Below are positions 5,513 to 58,992 of a stretch of DNA of 64,000 bases, in pieces. The position numbers were made by a program, and so were the translations under genes. Location of the stretch: sequence record OR544955. One strand, 5' to 3'. The notes beneath the pieces are model-generated. The model was not told where the DNA came from, ran no database searches, and worked only from the letters and a program-made list of their open reading frames with translations. The stretch comes from Escherichia phage vB_EcoP_EP32B. Within the stretch, counting starts at the first letter, position 1, and each line of letters starts with the position of its first letter.

Positions 5513-5821
5513 ATGATTAGTTTTGAGATTGAAATTTATGGCATCCCTGAAGAAGTAGGACGTTGTCCAGGATGTTATACTGTTACAAAACTTTTAAAGG
5601 AACTCAATGCTCCTTATACATTTTATAAAGTCCTCACTAATAATGGTAAGATTGAATATGACCGTCCTTTAATCGTATCTCTTGCTAAACGTGCAGGATT
5701 CACTTCACTTAATATTCGTTATCCTGTCATATTTTTAAATGGTAAGAAACAAAAGAATATTGCAGAGTTTAAAAAGTCCTTGATTTCATTAGGATACGAC
5801 TCTGATATCATAGAAGATTGA
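5513..5821 (+). CDS. nrdH: glutaredoxin-like protein NrdH
   Basis: 102 aa, CPGC redox motif, position after nrdG. Confidence 0.8.
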   Translation: MISFEIEIYGIPEEVGRCPGCYTVTKLLKELNAPYTFYKVLTNNGKIEYDRPLIVSLAKRAGFTSLNIRYPVIFLNGKKQKNIAEFKKSLISLGYDSDIIED

Positions 5822-9835: not shown

Positions 9836-10855
9836 ATGAAAATTTTGCACTTAGGCGACTTCCATATCGGAGTCAAACAAGACGACCCATGGGTTCAAGA
9901 TATTCAACGTGATGGTATTCGTCAAGCAATTGAATACTCTAAGAAACACGGGATTAAAACTTGGATTCAGTACGGTGATTGGTTTGACGTCCGTAAAGCA
10001 ATAACGCATCGTACAATGGAATTCAATCGTGAAATCGTTGATATGATTTCTAAAGCAGGCATTCACGTTCATGTCACGATAGGAAACCATGACATGGCGT
10101 TTAAGAATACAATAACACCTAACACTGTTTCTGAATTGTTAACTCAATTTGAAAACTTTACTATTTACGAACATCCAACTACTGTAGATTTTGACGGATG
10201 TCTGATTGATATCGTTCCATGGATGTGTGAAGAAAATACAGGTGAAATCTTAGAGCACATCAAGACTTCTTCTGCGGCGTATTGTGTTGGTCACTGGGAA
10301 CTGAACGGCTTCTATTTCTATAAAGGAATGAAGTCTCATGGGCTTGAACCTGATTTCTTAAAGACCTATAAACAAGTTTGGTCCGGCCACTTCCACACAA
10401 TCTCTGAAGCTGCTAACGTCAAATATATTGGAACACCGTGGACCCTTACTGCAGGCGATGAGAACGATCCTCGCGGATTCTGGGTATTTGACACTGATGT
10501 TGAACGTATGGAATTTATTCCTAATGAAACAACATGGCATCGACGAATCACTTATCCATTTAAAGGCAAAATCAATTATTCTGATTATACTAATCTAGCC
10601 GTACGTGTTATAGTATCAGAAATTGATTCAGAGTTGACTAAGTTTGAATCTGAACTTGAAAAAGTAGTTCACTCTCTTCGTATGGTTTCTAAAGTTGATA
10701 ACAGTGTTGAATCTGATGACGACCAGGAAATCGAGATTAAATCACTTCAAGATATCATTAAAGAATATATTGACGCGATTCCGGATATCTCAGACGAAGA
10801 CAGAGAAGCGCTGGTCAAATATTCAAACGAACTTTATATTGAGGCAACACAATGA
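9836..10855 (+). CDS. 47: recombination endonuclease subunit gp47 (Mre11-like)
   Basis: 339 aa, phosphoesterase motifs LHLGDFH, GDWFD, GNHD, GHWE, GHFH. Confidence 0.95.
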   Translation: MKILHLGDFHIGVKQDDPWVQDIQRDGIRQAIEYSKKHGIKTWIQYGDWFDVRKAITHRTMEFNREIVDMISKAGIHVHVTIGNHDMAFKNTITPNTVSELLTQFENFTIYEHPTTVDFDGCLIDIVPWMCEENTGEILEHIKTSSAAYCVGHWELNGFYFYKGMKSHGLEPDFLKTYKQVWSGHFHTISEAANVKYIGTPWTLTAGDENDPRGFWVFDTDVERMEFIPNETTWHRRITYPFKGKINYSDYTNLAVRVIVSEIDSELTKFESELEKVVHSLRMVSKVDNSVESDDDQEIEIKSLQDIIKEYIDAIPDISDEDREALVKYSNELYIEATQ

Positions 10856-11109
10856 CTTTAGATGAATTTAACAATGCCGGGCTTGGGCTTGAAGTTGAAA
10901 TAGACGTTAAAGATGATGATGGATTCGAGAACACTATTAAGTATTGGATTGAGCCATTACGCGTTGAAGGCAATGAAGTTAAAGCCGTTCATGTCTGTAC
11001 CGACTGGGCTATTGAATTTAGCTTTAATATAATGGACACTGATACTCCTGGCTCTATTCTTAAAATGGCTGAAGCGTGTATTGAGGATGCGTATAATGAC
11101 GAAGACTGA
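10852..11109 (+). CDS. hypothetical acidic protein
   Basis: 85-aa ORF coupled to 47. Confidence 0.5.
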   Translation: MTLDEFNNAGLGLEVEIDVKDDDGFENTIKYWIEPLRVEGNEVKAVHVCTDWAIEFSFNIMDTDTPGSILKMAEACIEDAYNDED

Positions 11110-11317
11110 TTATGAAATCCATCGTCATGAATTTAGTATTGGTGACGGTTATATTGGTATAGTTTTATGAGGAGACAACTCCTCGTTTCTTTGGAACCAT
11201 GTATGTTACTTGTGAGTACGCACCAGGTGTTGTTATGTATGCAGAACTAGATGAATATTTTGCTGATAGAGATGACATGTTAAAATATGTAGAGGACTTC
11301 ATTCGAAGAGAATACAT

Positions 11318-12880
11318 ATGAAATCATTTAAATTAAATCGTGTTCGTTATCAAAACATCATGTCAGTAGGTGGGAATCCTATTGATATCCAATTAGATAA
11401 AGTCCAAAAGACATTAATCACTGGTAAAAATGGCGGTGGTAAATCTACGATGTTAGAAGCCATTACTTTCGGACTTTTCGGTAAACCATTTCGTGATGTT
11501 AAGAAAGGACAAATCATTAATAGCATGAACAAGAAAGAGCTCTTAGTTGAGCTTTGGATGGAATTCGATGATAAAAAATACTTCATTAAACGTGGCCAAA
11601 AGCCCAATATTTTCGAAATCTCCGTTGACGGTGTTCGTCTCGATGAATCTGCCAGCAGTCGTGACTTCCAAGAAGAATTTGAACGTAGCATCGGAATGTC
11701 ATACGCGTCTTTTAAACAAATCGTTGTGCTTGGGACGGCAGGGTATACCCCTTTCATGGCTCTTAGCACCCCTGCTCGTAGAAAGCTTGTTGAAGACTTA
11801 TTAGAAGTTGGCACACTCGCTGAAATGGATAAAATCAATAAGTCTCAAGTTCGCGAACTTAATTCTCAGGGACAAGTTCTTGATGCCAAGAAAGATGGTA
11901 TTATCCAACAAATTAAGATTTATAACGAGAATATCGAACGTCAAAAGAAATTATCTGGTGATAATGTAGCGCGTCTACAGAATATGTATGACGACCTAGC
12001 CAAAGAAGCTCGGTCATTAAAAGCAGAAATCGAAGAAGCTAATGAGCGACTACTTAATATCGTTCTTGATGAAGACCCTACTGAGGCATTCAACAAGATA
12101 GGACAAGAAGCATTCTTGATTAAATCTAAAATTGACTCATATAACAAAGTTATTAAGATGTATCATGATGGCGGTACATGTCCTACTTGTGCATCACAGT
12201 TGCACCAGGGTGACCCTATTGTCTCTAAGATTACCGATAAGCTTCATGAATGTAATCACTCATTCGAGCAACTTACATGTCACAGAGATAATCTGAGTGT
12301 CCTAGTGGACGAATATAGAGCTAATGTCAAGACTAAACAGGACCTTGCATCTGATATTCGTACCAAGAAACAAGCAATGATTGCCACTATTGATAAAGCT
12401 AAGAAAGTTAAAGCTGCAATAGAACAAGCCTCAGCAGAATTTATCGACCATGCCGATGAGATAGCTTTGCTTCAAAAAGAACTTGATAAAATCATTAAAA
12501 CAAAATCGGATATCGTTCTTGAAAAATACCATCGTGGTATTATCACAGATATGTTAAAAGATTCTGGTATTAAAGGTGCTATCATTAAAAAATATGTGCC
12601 TCTGTTCAACAAGCAGATTAACCATTATCTTAAAATCATGGAAGCTGATTACGTGTTTTCTATTGACGAAGAATTCAATGAATCTATAAAATCACGTGGC
12701 CGTGAAGAGTTCAGTTATGCTTCATTTAGTCAAGGCGAAAAAGCGCGTATCGATATCGCATTGTTGTTTACATGGCGAGATATTGCTGAAAAGGTCTCTG
12801 GTGTTAAAATCAACACAACGTGTTCATTATTTCTCACAGAGACCATGACCCACAAGCTTATGGACAACATCTTCAAATGA
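11318..12880 (+). CDS. 46: recombination ATPase gp46 (Rad50/SbcC-like); C-terminus disrupted, H-loop segment continues in another frame to 12918
   Basis: Walker A GKNGGGKST, zinc hook CPTC, signature SQGEKARIDIAL; no Walker B in frame; VFIISHRDHDPQ in other frame. Confidence 0.85.
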   Translation: MKSFKLNRVRYQNIMSVGGNPIDIQLDKVQKTLITGKNGGGKSTMLEAITFGLFGKPFRDVKKGQIINSMNKKELLVELWMEFDDKKYFIKRGQKPNIFEISVDGVRLDESASSRDFQEEFERSIGMSYASFKQIVVLGTAGYTPFMALSTPARRKLVEDLLEVGTLAEMDKINKSQVRELNSQGQVLDAKKDGIIQQIKIYNENIERQKKLSGDNVARLQNMYDDLAKEARSLKAEIEEANERLLNIVLDEDPTEAFNKIGQEAFLIKSKIDSYNKVIKMYHDGGTCPTCASQLHQGDPIVSKITDKLHECNHSFEQLTCHRDNLSVLVDEYRANVKTKQDLASDIRTKKQAMIATIDKAKKVKAAIEQASAEFIDHADEIALLQKELDKIIKTKSDIVLEKYHRGIITDMLKDSGIKGAIIKKYVPLFNKQINHYLKIMEADYVFSIDEEFNESIKSRGREEFSYASFSQGEKARIDIALLFTWRDIAEKVSGVKINTTCSLFLTETMTHKLMDNIFK

Positions 12881-12972
12881 GCAAAGTTGGACGATTTACG
12901 GTAATGACTGTTTCATAAACGCTTTAACACGATGTGGTTATAATGACCACATCAAATTAAATGGAGAACAAC

Positions 12973-16374: not shown

Positions 16375-19059
16375 ATGAAAGAATTTTACTTAACGGTTGA
16401 ACAGATTGGTGATTCAATTTTTGAACGTTACATCGATTCTAATGGCCGTGAACGTACTCGTGAAGTAGAATATAAACCATCACTGTTTGCTCATTGTCCA
16501 GAAAGTCAGGCTACGAAATATTTCGATATCTACGGTAAGCCGTGTACTCGTAAGTTGTTCGCTAATATGCGTGATGCCTCCCAATGGATTAAACGTATGG
16601 AAGATATCGGACTTGAAGCACTTGGCATGGACGATTTCAAATTGGCGTATTTGTCTGACACTTATAACTATGAAATCAAATACGACCATACAAAAATTCG
16701 TGTGGCTAACTTCGACATCGAAGTAACATCTCCGGACGGGTTCCCTGAGCCGTCACAAGCAAAACATCCGATTGATGCTATCACCCATTATGACTCAATT
16801 GACGACAGGTTCTACGTATTTGATCTATTGAATTCTCCATATGGTAATGTAGAAGAATGGTCTATCGAAATTGCAGCTAAGCTTCAAGAACAAGGTGGTG
16901 ATGAAGTTCCATCCGAAATTATCGATAAAATCATTTATATGCCGTTCGATAACGAAAAAGAATTGTTGATGGAATATCTCAACTTCTGGCAACAGAAAAC
17001 TCCTGTCATTTTGACTGGATGGAACGTTGAGTCATTTGATATTCCATATGTGTATAACCGAATCAAGAATATTTTTGGCGAATCTACTGCGAAACGTTTA
17101 TCACCACATCGTAAAACTCGTGTTAAAGTTATCGAAAACATGTATGGTTCTCGTGAAATCATTACATTGTTCGGTATCTCTGTTCTTGATTATATTGACC
17201 TTTACAAAAAATTCTCTTTTACCAATCAACCGTCGTATTCTCTGGATTACATTTCAGAATTTGAATTGAACGTTGGTAAACTGAAATACGACGGTCCTAT
17301 TTCTAAACTTCGTTATAACATCATCGACGTATATCGTGTATTGCAAATTGATGCTAAACGCCAGTTCATTAACTTGAGTTTGGACATGGGTTATTATGCT
17401 AAGATACAGATTCAATCTGTGTTTAGCCCAATTAAAACATGGGATGCTATTATTTTTAATAGCCTTAAAGAACAAAACAAGGTGATTCCACAAGGTCGTT
17501 CGCATCCAGTTCAACCTTACCCGGGTGCTTTTGTTAAGGAACCTATTCCAAATCGATACAAATATGTAATGAGTTTCGACCTTACATCTCTGTATCCAAG
17601 TATTATTCGCCAAGTGAATATTAGCCCGGAAACAATAGCAGGAACGTTTAAAGTAGCTCCACTGCATGATTATATTAACGCAATCGCTGAACGTCCTTCA
17701 GATGTGTACAGTTGCTCTCCTAACGGCATGATGTATTATAAAGACCGTGACGGTGTTGTTCCAACTGAAATCACTAAGGTCTTTAATCAACGTAAAGAAC
17801 ATAAAGGTTATATGCTTGCAGCTCAACGTAATGGTGAAATAATTAAAGAGGCATTGCATAATCCTAATCTTTCTGTTGACGAACCATTAGATGTTGATTA
17901 TCGTTTCGACTTCAGCGATGAGATTAAAGAAAAGATTAAAAAGTTGTCTGCTAAATCTCTTAATGAAATGTTGTTTAGAGCTCAACGTACTGAAGTTGCA
18001 GGTATGACTGCACAGATTAACCGTAAATTGCTTATCAACTCACTTTATGGTGCACTTGGAAACGTTTGGTTCCGTTATTATGATTTGCGTAATGCTACTG
18101 CAATCACAACATTCGGACAAATGGCTTTACAGTGGATTGAACGTAAAGTTAATGAATATCTGAATGAAGTTTGCGGTACAGAAGGTGAAGCTTTCGTTCT
18201 TTATGGTGATACAGACTCTATTTACGTATCTGCTGATAAAATTATCGATAAGGTTGGTGAATCTAAATTCCGTGATACCAACCATTGGGTAGACTTCTTA
18301 GATAAGTTCGCTCGTGAACGTATGGAACCTGCTATTGATAGAGGTTTCCGTGAAATGTGCGAATACATGAATAATAAGCAACATTTGATGTTCATGGACC
18401 GAGAAGCTATCGCTGGTCCTCCGCTCGGTTCTAAAGGTATTGGTGGATTTTGGACTGGTAAGAAACGTTATGCATTAAACGTGTGGGATATGGAAGGTAC
18501 TCGTTACGCTGAGCCTAAACTCAAAATCATGGGTCTAGAGACTCAGAAATCTTCGACACCTAAAGCAGTACAGAAAGCTCTTAAAGAATGTATTCGTCGT
18601 ATGCTTCAAGAAGGTGAAGAATCATTACAAGAATATTTTAAAGAGTTTGAAAAAGAATTCCGTCAATTGAATTATATTAGCATCGCGTCGGTATCTTCTG
18701 CGAATAACATTGCTAAATATGATGTCGGTGGATTCCCTGGCCCCAAATGTCCGTTCCATATTCGTGGAATTCTGACATATAACCGAGCTATCAAAGGTAA
18801 TATCGATGCACCGCAAGTTGTAGAAGGTGAAAAAGTATATGTTCTGCCTTTACGTGAAGGAAACCCATTCGGTGATAAATGTATCGCATGGCCTTCTGGT
18901 ACGGAAATCACTGATTTAATCAAAGATGATGTACTTCATTGGATGGACTACACGGTTCTCCTTGAGAAGACATTTATTAAACCACTTGAAGGATTCACAT
19001 CAGCAGCTAAACTCGATTACGAGAAGAAAGCATCTCTGTTCGATATGTTTGATTTTTGA
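16375..19059 (+). CDS. 43: DNA polymerase gp43 (family B, RB69-type numbering)
   Basis: 894 aa; Exo I FDIE (D114/E116), D222, YGDTDS, KILINSLYG; strong match to recalled RB69 gp43. Confidence 0.97.
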   Translation: MKEFYLTVEQIGDSIFERYIDSNGRERTREVEYKPSLFAHCPESQATKYFDIYGKPCTRKLFANMRDASQWIKRMEDIGLEALGMDDFKLAYLSDTYNYEIKYDHTKIRVANFDIEVTSPDGFPEPSQAKHPIDAITHYDSIDDRFYVFDLLNSPYGNVEEWSIEIAAKLQEQGGDEVPSEIIDKIIYMPFDNEKELLMEYLNFWQQKTPVILTGWNVESFDIPYVYNRIKNIFGESTAKRLSPHRKTRVKVIENMYGSREIITLFGISVLDYIDLYKKFSFTNQPSYSLDYISEFELNVGKLKYDGPISKLRYNIIDVYRVLQIDAKRQFINLSLDMGYYAKIQIQSVFSPIKTWDAIIFNSLKEQNKVIPQGRSHPVQPYPGAFVKEPIPNRYKYVMSFDLTSLYPSIIRQVNISPETIAGTFKVAPLHDYINAIAERPSDVYSCSPNGMMYYKDRDGVVPTEITKVFNQRKEHKGYMLAAQRNGEIIKEALHNPNLSVDEPLDVDYRFDFSDEIKEKIKKLSAKSLNEMLFRAQRTEVAGMTAQINRKLLINSLYGALGNVWFRYYDLRNATAITTFGQMALQWIERKVNEYLNEVCGTEGEAFVLYGDTDSIYVSADKIIDKVGESKFRDTNHWVDFLDKFARERMEPAIDRGFREMCEYMNNKQHLMFMDREAIAGPPLGSKGIGGFWTGKKRYALNVWDMEGTRYAEPKLKIMGLETQKSSTPKAVQKALKECIRRMLQEGEESLQEYFKEFEKEFRQLNYISIASVSSANNIAKYDVGGFPGPKCPFHIRGILTYNRAIKGNIDAPQVVEGEKVYVLPLREGNPFGDKCIAWPSGTEITDLIKDDVLHWMDYTVLLEKTFIKPLEGFTSAAKLDYEKKASLFDMFDF

Positions 19060-19099: not shown

Positions 19100-19408
19100 A
19101 TGAAAACTACTCCTATTACTATCGCTATTGACGCAATCATAAAACAAGCTTCTTCTTTGGCCGCTATGGCCAAAGTAATTAGTCAAAACCCTGCTCGTTA
19201 TAATGCTATTCTAGAAACTCTTCGACGCCCTGGACTGAGTAATTATGAAAGTCGTGTAATTATTACAGGTGTTGGTAAGAACGCTAATATCGCAACTAAA
19301 GCTTCCGAGACATTTGCTTCACTCGGTATCCCGAGTATGTACTTGAACACTGGGCATTATTCTCACGGTGATGCAGGATTCATTGCGCCTAATGAGGCAT
19401 CGCGGTAG
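19100..19408 (+). CDS. KdsD/GutQ-like SIS-domain sugar-phosphate isomerase, N-terminal part (gene frameshifted, continues 19396-19575)
   Basis: ITGVGKNANIATK..TFASLGIPS..HGD; downstream frame has LAPTMSTT and HPGGALG. Confidence 0.6.
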   Translation: MKTTPITIAIDAIIKQASSLAAMAKVISQNPARYNAILETLRRPGLSNYESRVIITGVGKNANIATKASETFASLGIPSMYLNTGHYSHGDAGFIAPNEASR

Positions 19409-33224: not shown

Positions 33225-33313
33225 AATATCTCCTTAGTTACCTATTATTTATTACGCTTTATAAAATTAATGTTAGAATTAACTCACTTATTACTGAATT
33301 GAAAGGAAAAATA

Positions 33314-33628
33314 ATGGCGCACTTTAATGAATGTTCACAACTTATTTCTGGTGTTGATAAAGCAGAAGAAGCTTATTTTAATGCTCTGATTCACGAAGAT
33401 AAAGACCCACTTCAGGTAATGCTTGATATGCAGAAATCTTTACAGGTTCGTCTGGCAAATGACAAGCCTGAACATAACAAACATCCTGATGAATTGGCTA
33501 CTGCCGGTGATGTTGTTGATTGGCTGCGTAATCAGAAAGATTATATTGATGATGAATTCCGTGAACTGTTGACTTCACTTGGTGGTATGATTATAAATAC
33601 ACCTGTAATTAAACAACAAAGGAGTTAA
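33314..33628 (+). CDS. MazG-like all-alpha NTP pyrophosphatase (gene 56 dCTPase-like), possibly short
   Basis: 104 aa; DDEFRELL motif; position after 61. Confidence 0.45.
   Translation: MAHFNECSQLISGVDKAEEAYFNALIHEDKDPLQVMLDMQKSLQVRLANDKPEHNKHPDELATAGDVVDWLRNQKDYIDDEFRELLTSLGGMIINTPVIKQQRS
33592..33599 (+). promoter_or_regulatory. late promoter TATAAATA for soc
   Basis: exact TATAAATA about 32 nt upstream of soc ATG. Confidence 0.7.
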
Positions 33629-33630
33629 TT

Positions 33631-33774
33631 ATGGGTGGTTATGTAAACATCAAAACCTTTACGCATCCTGCTGGTGAAGGCAAAGAAGTTAAAGGTATGG
33701 AAGTTTCTGTACCGTTTGAGATTTATTCAAACGAACATCGGATTGCTGATTCTCATTACCAAGTAAGTGGTTAA
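33631..33774 (+). CDS. soc: small outer capsid protein Soc, short form (47 aa)
   Basis: MGGYVNIKTF..EVSVPFEIYSNEHRIADSHYQ resembles recalled T4/RB69 Soc N-terminal half. Confidence 0.6.
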   Translation: MGGYVNIKTFTHPAGEGKEVKGMEVSVPFEIYSNEHRIADSHYQVSG

Positions 33775-57375: not shown

Positions 57376-57408
57376 ATTATAAAAAAGGGACCGAAGTCCC
57401 TTCTCCTT
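57376..57408 (-). promoter_or_regulatory. gene 38 translation initiation region: SD separated from AUG by a UUCG hairpin
   Basis: mRNA UAAGGAGAA GGGACUUCGGUCCC UUUUUUAUAAU AUG. Confidence 0.65.
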
Positions 57409-58992
57409 ATGCTAAACGAACGATATAGTTAAAAGCAACGTTTTTAACTGTGTTTTCTGTATTTCCTGTGGCATTTACAGTTATTGTATGTCCATGGGAA
57501 CCAATTGCAACAGTATGAGAATGAGCACCAATACCTACCGAATGGGTATGAGCGCCAATACCCACAGTATGAGCATGGTTACCCGTGGTACTTGTGGTTC
57601 CTGACCAAGAGTGTGTATGGTTACCTTCTGAAGAAGTTTTGGCTATATTCGACCCTGCAGTAGCACCGTTCACGGTTCCAGTGAATTTAGAGCACTATGG
57701 TTATGAGACTTAATACCATCTGCTTCTGTACTTAATACAGCACGCCCAGATGGTTTACCTTTAATCGTTTGCCCACGCATATCAGGCAGAGAGCCGGAAG
57801 GATACACCGCAGCTAACTTAGGATACAAGCCAGCATCAAATGTTTGACCTTCCATTATGGCATAACCTTCAGGAGGTGTATCAGTAGGCCATGGAATCGG
57901 AGCACCAATTGGGTAACTCGACACAATATCCGTCTTAAGGTTATTTATTGTGGTATTCAAGTTAGCAAAATTACCAGAACCGCCGGTGATATTACCATCA
58001 GTACCAATAATTGTCCTAATTGCATACGGTAATTAGGAGAAATGCGACTATGACTAGTTATAACAACAAGTTTATTATCATTATCAACGGTCACCATATT
58101 ACCGCCAGCACCATCATCACCTAACGTAACAGAATGGCGCATTTGAACCATACCGTTAATAGTGGTTCATTTTACCACCAGCATTGTACCCGATATGGGT
58201 TTGTCCGTCTCCAGCATTGTTATTATCAGCTTGTGTTTGAACCCTTGGTCTTCTGAACGTCCAAATATACCTTTACGAGTACTACGGAAACTGTCAGGAG
58301 TAATAGAAGCAACAGAATTCCAATTACCTACTAAATCATAAACTCCTTGCTTAATATATTTTAAGCCAGTAGCAGCATCCCCCAAAGCAATATATCTTTC
58401 TCCCATTGGAGTAGGAGAGCCGTAGTTATTGGTATTTTCGTCAGCAGTAATTGTGCCAATAGCAAGTGAACGACGTAATACCATTGCTCCATCATTACGA
58501 AGACCCATTAATTTAGTAGTAAGTATATTTCCGGTCCACCAAGAAATTTCATCATTCTTACCAGTTTGAGCTGAAGCGATTTCATGGTAAATAGTTCCGC
58601 CTGATTTAGCTCGAACTTTACGAAGATAGTTTATACCATTTTCTTCACCTGTTCCAGGATAAACATATTGAACTAATGACTGCGAATCGTATTGTCCAAA
58701 TGCTTTTGTGTCCAAAACAATGGTTTTCGTATTAACTTGCGGAGCAGAAACTATACCATTAGCGGAGTTAATATTGCCGGACGCAGAAATATTACCTGCG
58801 TTGAGTTACATTACCGTTAATATCCCCGCCCTTAGCAAAGCCTAGGCTAATAATATTACCGAGGTCATCTTTAGTAAAAAGAGTTCGATCTTTTAAGTTT
58901 ATCGCTAATTCGCCTTCGGCTAATTGTGCTGCAGTAGGATTAACTCCTGCTACTTTGCTTCTTTTAAATTGTATCTGTTTTAATGTAGCCAT
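57407..58992 (-). pseudogene. 37: distal tail fiber gene 37 (T4 type), reading frame broken into at least five segments
   Basis: N-term [13 protein letters not shown]; internal [23 protein letters not shown]; His-box C-term [22 protein letters not shown]; frame changes near 58790, 58235, 58155, 57670. Confidence 0.8.

Follow-up and report, generated by a model that had tools for sequence, protein, structure and literature searches.

The 88-nucleotide gap in gene 46 of Escherichia phage vB_EcoP_EP32b is very probably an artefact of the deposited record

The genome record of Escherichia phage vB_EcoP_EP32b (OR544955), a Mosigvirus, raises the question of whether a natural T-even phage may dispense with its Mre11-Rad50 ATPase. 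In the 64-kb stretch of this record analysed here (64,000 nucleotides; hereafter the window), which is T-even and RB69-like and whose first 25 kb are 97.7-97.8% identical to the O157 typing phages 3, 6 and 13, gene 46 is interrupted by an internal gap. Were this deletion true, end resection by gp46/gp47 would be bypassed in this phage, which would then be of interest for research on recombination-dependent replication. The comparisons reported below lead us to conclude that the gap is very probably an assembly or consensus artefact of OR544955 and not a property of the phage, which most likely encodes a normal gp46 of 562 aa.

Gene 46 and its neighborhood as deposited

The open reading frame at 11318..12880 on the plus strand encodes 520 aa, ends with a stop codon at 12878-12880 and has a product that corresponds exactly to WPK29061.1. 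Codons 1-500 (11318..12817) constitute the authentic part of gene 46 and contain the Walker A motif GKNGGGKST (aa 36-44, nt 11423-11449), the zinc hook CPTC within the central coiled coil (aa 288-291, nt 12179-12190) and the ABC signature SQGEKA (aa 471-476, nt 12728-12745). These motifs were assigned by aligning an intact homologue to the Thermotoga maritima Rad50 structure 3qf7, in which SGGERA is the counterpart of the signature. The last authentic residue is T500, and it is followed by 20 out-of-frame codons (CSLFLTETMTHKLMDNIFK...; 12818..12880) and the stop. The initial annotation had listed the same three motifs in an ORF that terminates at 12880 with no Walker B, and this description is borne out, except that the stop lies 44 residues past the signature and not 21. 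Of the Pfam profiles, AAA_23, AAA_29 and ABC_tran match the N-terminal ATPase half of the 520-aa ORF only, and besides these there is a weak hit to Rad50_zn_hook (E=0.009, under the Pfam cut-off).

Neither the Walker B motif (hhhhDE) nor the D-loop (LILDEVFDG...) was found in any frame of the deposited sequence. The H-loop ISHRDHD is encoded, yet it is out of frame with the N-terminal part: codons 530-562 and the natural stop (NVFIISHRDHD...TVS*; 12817..12918, plus strand), comprising the H-loop and a C-terminus identical to that of relatives, lie in the +2 frame relative to codons 1-500. In translation they appear as a short second ORF, (N)VFIISHRDHDPQAYGQHLQMSKVGRFTVMTVS*, at 12817/12820..12918 in the +2 (= -1) frame. 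With the PHROG 77 profile the 520-aa ORF matches positions 293-892 and the tail positions 923-953, leaving the 30 positions 893-922 unmatched. Together with the alignments to relatives, this confirms the earlier claim of an internal deletion that takes Walker B and the D-loop and puts the H-loop out of frame. The size given for that loss, about 65-70 nt, needs correction: the gene measures 1601 nt in the window as against 1689 nt in RB69, JK36 and O157 typing phage 3, so that exactly 88 nt are lost. Alignments to relatives place the junction at 12816|12817 on the plus strand and identify the missing part as codons 501-529, namely Walker B (LILDE), the D-loop and the next helix, which would read LILDEVFDGAVDSEAVKAIDTILGSLQNT if the nearest haplotype is taken as the guide. 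A search for the 88-nt segment elsewhere in the 64-kb window returned just chance matches of 10-15 nt.

The local gene order, 47, 46.2, 46.1, 46, 45.2, rpbA and 45, is that of T-even phages. Gene 47 (9836..10855, plus strand), which codes for the Mre11/SbcD-like nuclease subunit, is intact with 339 aa (PHROG 100, E=1.6e-135), and an identical gp47 is encoded on at least 24 other contigs; wherever the gene beside it was examined on these contigs (10 of 10), gp46 has 562 aa. Gene 46.1 (DUF5487) is represented by a remnant at 11096..11321 on the plus strand, in which a 14-nt gap at 11164|11165 shifts the frame, as seen in alignment with typing phage 3, Escherichia phage vB_EcoM_EP32a and RB69. 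This lesion is situated 150 nt upstream of gene 46 and leaves gp46.1 with a coverage of 0.65 by tblastn. In some relatives free-standing homing-endonuclease genes adjoin gene 46 (locus L013, 9179-9895, minus strand; locus L015, 7261-8121, plus strand), both matching PHROG 655 (E=7e-67 and 1e-31, respectively); one of them overlaps the gene 46 stop on the opposite strand and the other replaces or extends gp46.1. Neither of these gene-46-flanking endonuclease genes is present in the window.

The gap among relatives and the two-version patch

The region matches 180 phage records, and among those listed that cover both flanks the alignment falls into two pieces spanning 1731 nt, with the flanks 88 nt further apart than in the window. 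The sole exception among these records is EP32a (OR544954), which aligns in one piece. It lacks 89 nt at the same position of gene 46, which is annotated there as two CDSs (WPK28852.1 and WPK28853.1), and its gene 46 differs from that of EP32b by about 2%. Since EP32a comes from the same study and pipeline and shows the same kind of defects, it does not provide independent support for the deletion. Relatives with a gp46 ending in the same way had been named in the initial annotation as what would speak against a disruption; EP32a does end so, but it originates from the same laboratory and pipeline, and the other relatives examined have 562 aa. Thus, in the 216-member cluster of WPK29061.1 at 90% identity all 14 other listed members are 562 aa long, and the 10 independent contigs with a gp47 identical to that of the window all keep the full 88 nt. 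A degenerate-pattern search for the junction gave 0 matches in IMG/VR, the JGI metagenome contigs and the GTDB genome contigs; the same pattern matched the window and EP32a, which served as positive controls. Likewise, zero contigs in the gene-position index encode this truncated gp46.

In intact Mosigvirus relatives the missing 88 nt lie at the heart of a patch that comes in two versions. One version, of the RB69 type, reads LIMDEVMDSATDSEGIKAISTILNSLTDA, and the other, of the typing-phage-3 type, reads LILDEVFDGAVDSEAVKAIDTILGSLQNT. Between RB69 and typing phage 3, identity falls from 97.2% in the flanks to 65.9% within the patch. The typing-phage-3 version is matched at 90% identity or more by about 90 records and at about 75-78% by the other sampled Mosigvirus records. 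The patch is sharply bounded, extending over about codons 495-540 of gene 46, that is Walker B, the D-loop and the next helix (loci L002, L004 and L011-L020), and both versions are common. Recombination with another T-even lineage and a homing-endonuclease co-conversion tract are possibilities for its origin. A link between the patch version and the neighboring homing-endonuclease genes was considered but is not supported by the few loci examined, in which each version occurs both with and without these genes. The flanks of the gap in the window are of the typing-phage-3 type right beside the gap and of the RB69 type from about 25 nt downstream, and in EP32a markers of both types alternate in the flanks. 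Such mixed markers are what a consensus drawn from two related phages would look like.

Further gaps in the window and the origin of the records

The gap in gene 46 is accompanied by many others. We compared the window by blastn with O157 typing phage 3, which is 97.8% identical to it and covers it from end to end. Relative to this phage 13 segments are excised, of 216, 190, 298, 88, 160, 594, 93, 96, 175, 247, 334, 722 and 350 nt (3,563 nt in total). All but one of these excisions are clean, with nothing inserted; the exception is the 175-nt site, where 201 nt are replaced by about 26 unaligned bases. A further 16 small deletions of 1-43 nt (198 nt in total) lie inside the aligned blocks, as against merely 5 insertions of 1-3 nt each (9 nt in total). 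With typing phage 3 as reference, the overall balance is therefore 29 deletions (3,761 nt) versus 5 insertions (9 nt), and not one N occurs in the window. Over the first five excision sites RB69 is colinear with typing phage 3, which shows that these five do not reflect natural polymorphism between the pair.

Several of these lesions damage genes severely. The strongest sign that the record is unfaithful is the collapse of gp37, the distal tail fibre (57407..58990, minus strand), where excisions of 247, 334, 722 and 350 nt at 57690, 58009, 58157 and 58800 and a 43-nt gap reduce the gene to about 1.6 kb, left in several out-of-frame pieces with ORFs of 88, 96 and 182 aa. The region spans 1,625 nt in comparison with 3,321 nt in the best-matching records, to which it aligns in six pieces. 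A 594-nt gap at 33589|33590 (region 33299-33774) leaves only the first 92 of the 173 residues of the gp56 dCTPase and removes two small ORFs, and 93 nt are missing inside soc at 33762|33763, leaving 47 aa versus 78 aa. A 160-nt gap at 19395|19396 frameshifts a gene for a KpsF/GutQ-like isomerase, of which a 102-aa remnant is left versus 211 aa. Small gaps of 2-28 nt relative to all relatives are found at 11164|11165, 6216, 6553, 17313, 31073, 45615 and 49977; they frameshift gp46.1, small 55.x ORFs, the RB69ORF003c homologue and denB, and at 17313 the DNA polymerase gp43 loses 27 nt in frame. About thirty similar gaps, which also wreck indispensable genes, point to a faulty assembly rather than to biology. 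In a separate case the 298-nt excision at 5527|5528 creates an in-frame fusion in which codons 1-5 of the RB69ORF082c homologue are followed by nrdH from codon 11 onwards, and which may reflect either a natural deletion or a collapse during assembly.

The gene 46 patch, the gp56-soc region and gp37 are divergent among relatives, and several other excised pieces (216, 298, 160 and 96 nt) are well conserved, being 96-99% identical between RB69 and typing phage 3; the drop-out of hypervariable patches as the single cause of all excisions is accordingly rejected. Base-composition bias is equally unsuitable as a cause, with a GC content of 0.33-0.43 in the missing segments versus 0.37 overall, and so is microhomology-mediated deletion, the overlap being 0 nt at gene 46 relative to the nearest haplotype and mostly 0-2 nt at the other junctions. 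As a measure of record quality we also tried counting the typing phage 3 genes covered to less than 90% by a single HSP (window 20, RB69 14, EP32a 7). It proved noisy, because RB69 has natural differences in gene structure as well as divergent patches, and individual lesions were used instead.

EP32a and EP32b were described together, both having been isolated on E. coli O157:H7 strain J32, purified by three rounds of plaque purification and titrated (PMC11657129). Sequencing was by Illumina 2x150 and de novo assembly by SPAdes 3.13.0, contig joining is not described, and the data deposit consists of GenBank accessions only, with no read archive listed (PMC11657129). The genome sizes are given as 163,906 bp for EP32a and 156,698 bp for EP32b (PMC11657129), the latter being the deposited length of OR544955, as compared to about 160-171 kb in related records. 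A third genome of the study is reportedly devoid of TerL (PMC11657129). The name vB_EcoP denotes a podovirus morphotype determined by TEM, yet the genome is that of a T4-like myovirus, and the genera in the abstract of the paper are inconsistent with those in its table (PMC11657129). These mismatches of name and genus suggest impure stocks or sample mix-ups.

Weighing the explanations

The loss of a functional gp46 that the initial annotation implies is not supported, the gap being one of about 30 deletion-type defects, several of them in indispensable genes (gp37, gp56). A phage without a distal tail fibre and dCTPase could not be plaque-purified and titrated; the defects in gp37 and gp56 are thus incompatible with the isolate as described, and the record does not faithfully represent the phage. 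As to how the gaps arose, the genome was probably built from a gappy consensus or by joining several short-read contigs, and the unassembled pieces were probably dropped silently, with no Ns put in their place. If the lysate or library held two related Mosigviruses, as the shared host strain of EP32a and EP32b might suggest, the assembly would have broken at the patch of gene 46 that exists in two versions, a short-read assembly graph being expected to break at such a patch. Some points weigh against an artefact. The paper reports SPAdes and no joining of contigs, so the route to the artefact is one that we infer. Drop-out of divergent patches does not explain all of the gaps, as it leaves unaccounted for several excisions in segments that relatives conserve at 98-99% identity. 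The difference between 88 and 89 nt would also fit two related real alleles. Finally, T4 mutants in genes 46 and 47 have a DNA-arrest phenotype and are leaky and suppressible by das mutations, which makes a gp46-null phage conceivable and not strictly impossible.

This last point, along with the observation that two records about 2% apart in gene 46 lose the same segment and that a microhomology of 1-2 nt can be read at the junction in an RB69-type background, would favor a deletion that is real and fixed, with EP32b (and EP32a) growing in the absence of functional gp46 by means of a das-like suppressor or host nucleases and the allele being shared by, or recurrent among, phages of this locality. 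We regard this as very unlikely, given that both records come from one study and pipeline and carry lethal-looking gaps elsewhere, including the collapsed gp37, that 88 and 89 nt are both out of frame, that the microhomology vanishes against the nearest haplotype, and that the junction occurs in no other collection searched while all other gp46 proteins examined have 562 aa. A genuine 88/89-nt deletion would mean that two wild Mosigviruses sharing one sewage source multiply on E. coli O157:H7 with no Rad50-like ATPase gp46, which we likewise hold to be very unlikely. Alternatively, the lysate might have been mixed and only some of its genomes defective, these carrying the deletion and being complemented by an intact co-infecting phage, with the assembler having taken the deleted path. 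The flanking SNPs that combine markers of both patch versions agree with such a mixture, as does the hint of impure stocks in a TEM-based "P" name attached to a T4-like genome. However, this would require each of about 30 deletions, many of which shift the frame, to be a high-frequency defective allele, and three rounds of plaque purification speak against stable defective populations, which makes this scenario very unlikely too. The two CDSs annotated in EP32a could be taken to mean that the gene is split or recoded and regains activity, either through the 500-aa N-terminal part acting together with a 33-aa H-loop peptide or through a programmed frameshift. An ABC ATPase needs the Walker B glutamate for ATP hydrolysis, and the Walker B and D-loop residues are in neither frame, no other part of the window contains the lost segment and the arrangement is seen in no relative examined; as no frame codes for a Walker B, this option is essentially excluded.

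An artefact of assembly or consensus hence remains by far the best explanation of the gap, and its import is one of data quality, with little biological weight. OR544955, and to a lesser degree OR544954, are unfit as evidence of gene loss, of pseudogenes in the T-even core or of short tail-fibre variants, and automated scans will go on flagging the roughly 30 gaps as "disrupted essential genes".

In T4-type recombination the Rad50-like ATPase gp46 and the nuclease gp47 resect DNA ends (PMC3016280). The gene 46 of the window is about 98% identical in nucleotide sequence to that of RB69 over 1601 nt, in the same synteny (47-46.2-46.1-46-45.2-rpbA-45), and like the Rad50/SbcC-type gp46 proteins of T4 and RB69 (PHROG 77) it has a recognizable Walker A, coiled coil with CPTC, signature and H-loop tail. 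Unlike these it is short of 88 nt and frameshifted, every other member examined having 562 aa. EP32a resembles EP32b in study, host strain, sequencing and assembly, in the position of the gap and in a collapsed gp37 (about 0.9 kb in EP32a), and it shares with EP32b the 190-nt gap and part of the gap at gp56-soc. It differs in the size of the gene 46 gap (89 versus 88 nt), in several flank SNPs, in having fewer excisions (about 6 in the homologous 64 kb) and in its length of 163.9 kb. In contrast to both, the O157 typing phages 3, 6 and 13 (Mosigvirus 0157tp3), which are the nearest complete relatives and share the haplotype of the flanks adjacent to the gap, hold all 13 segments absent from the window and have intact gp46, gp56 and gp37.
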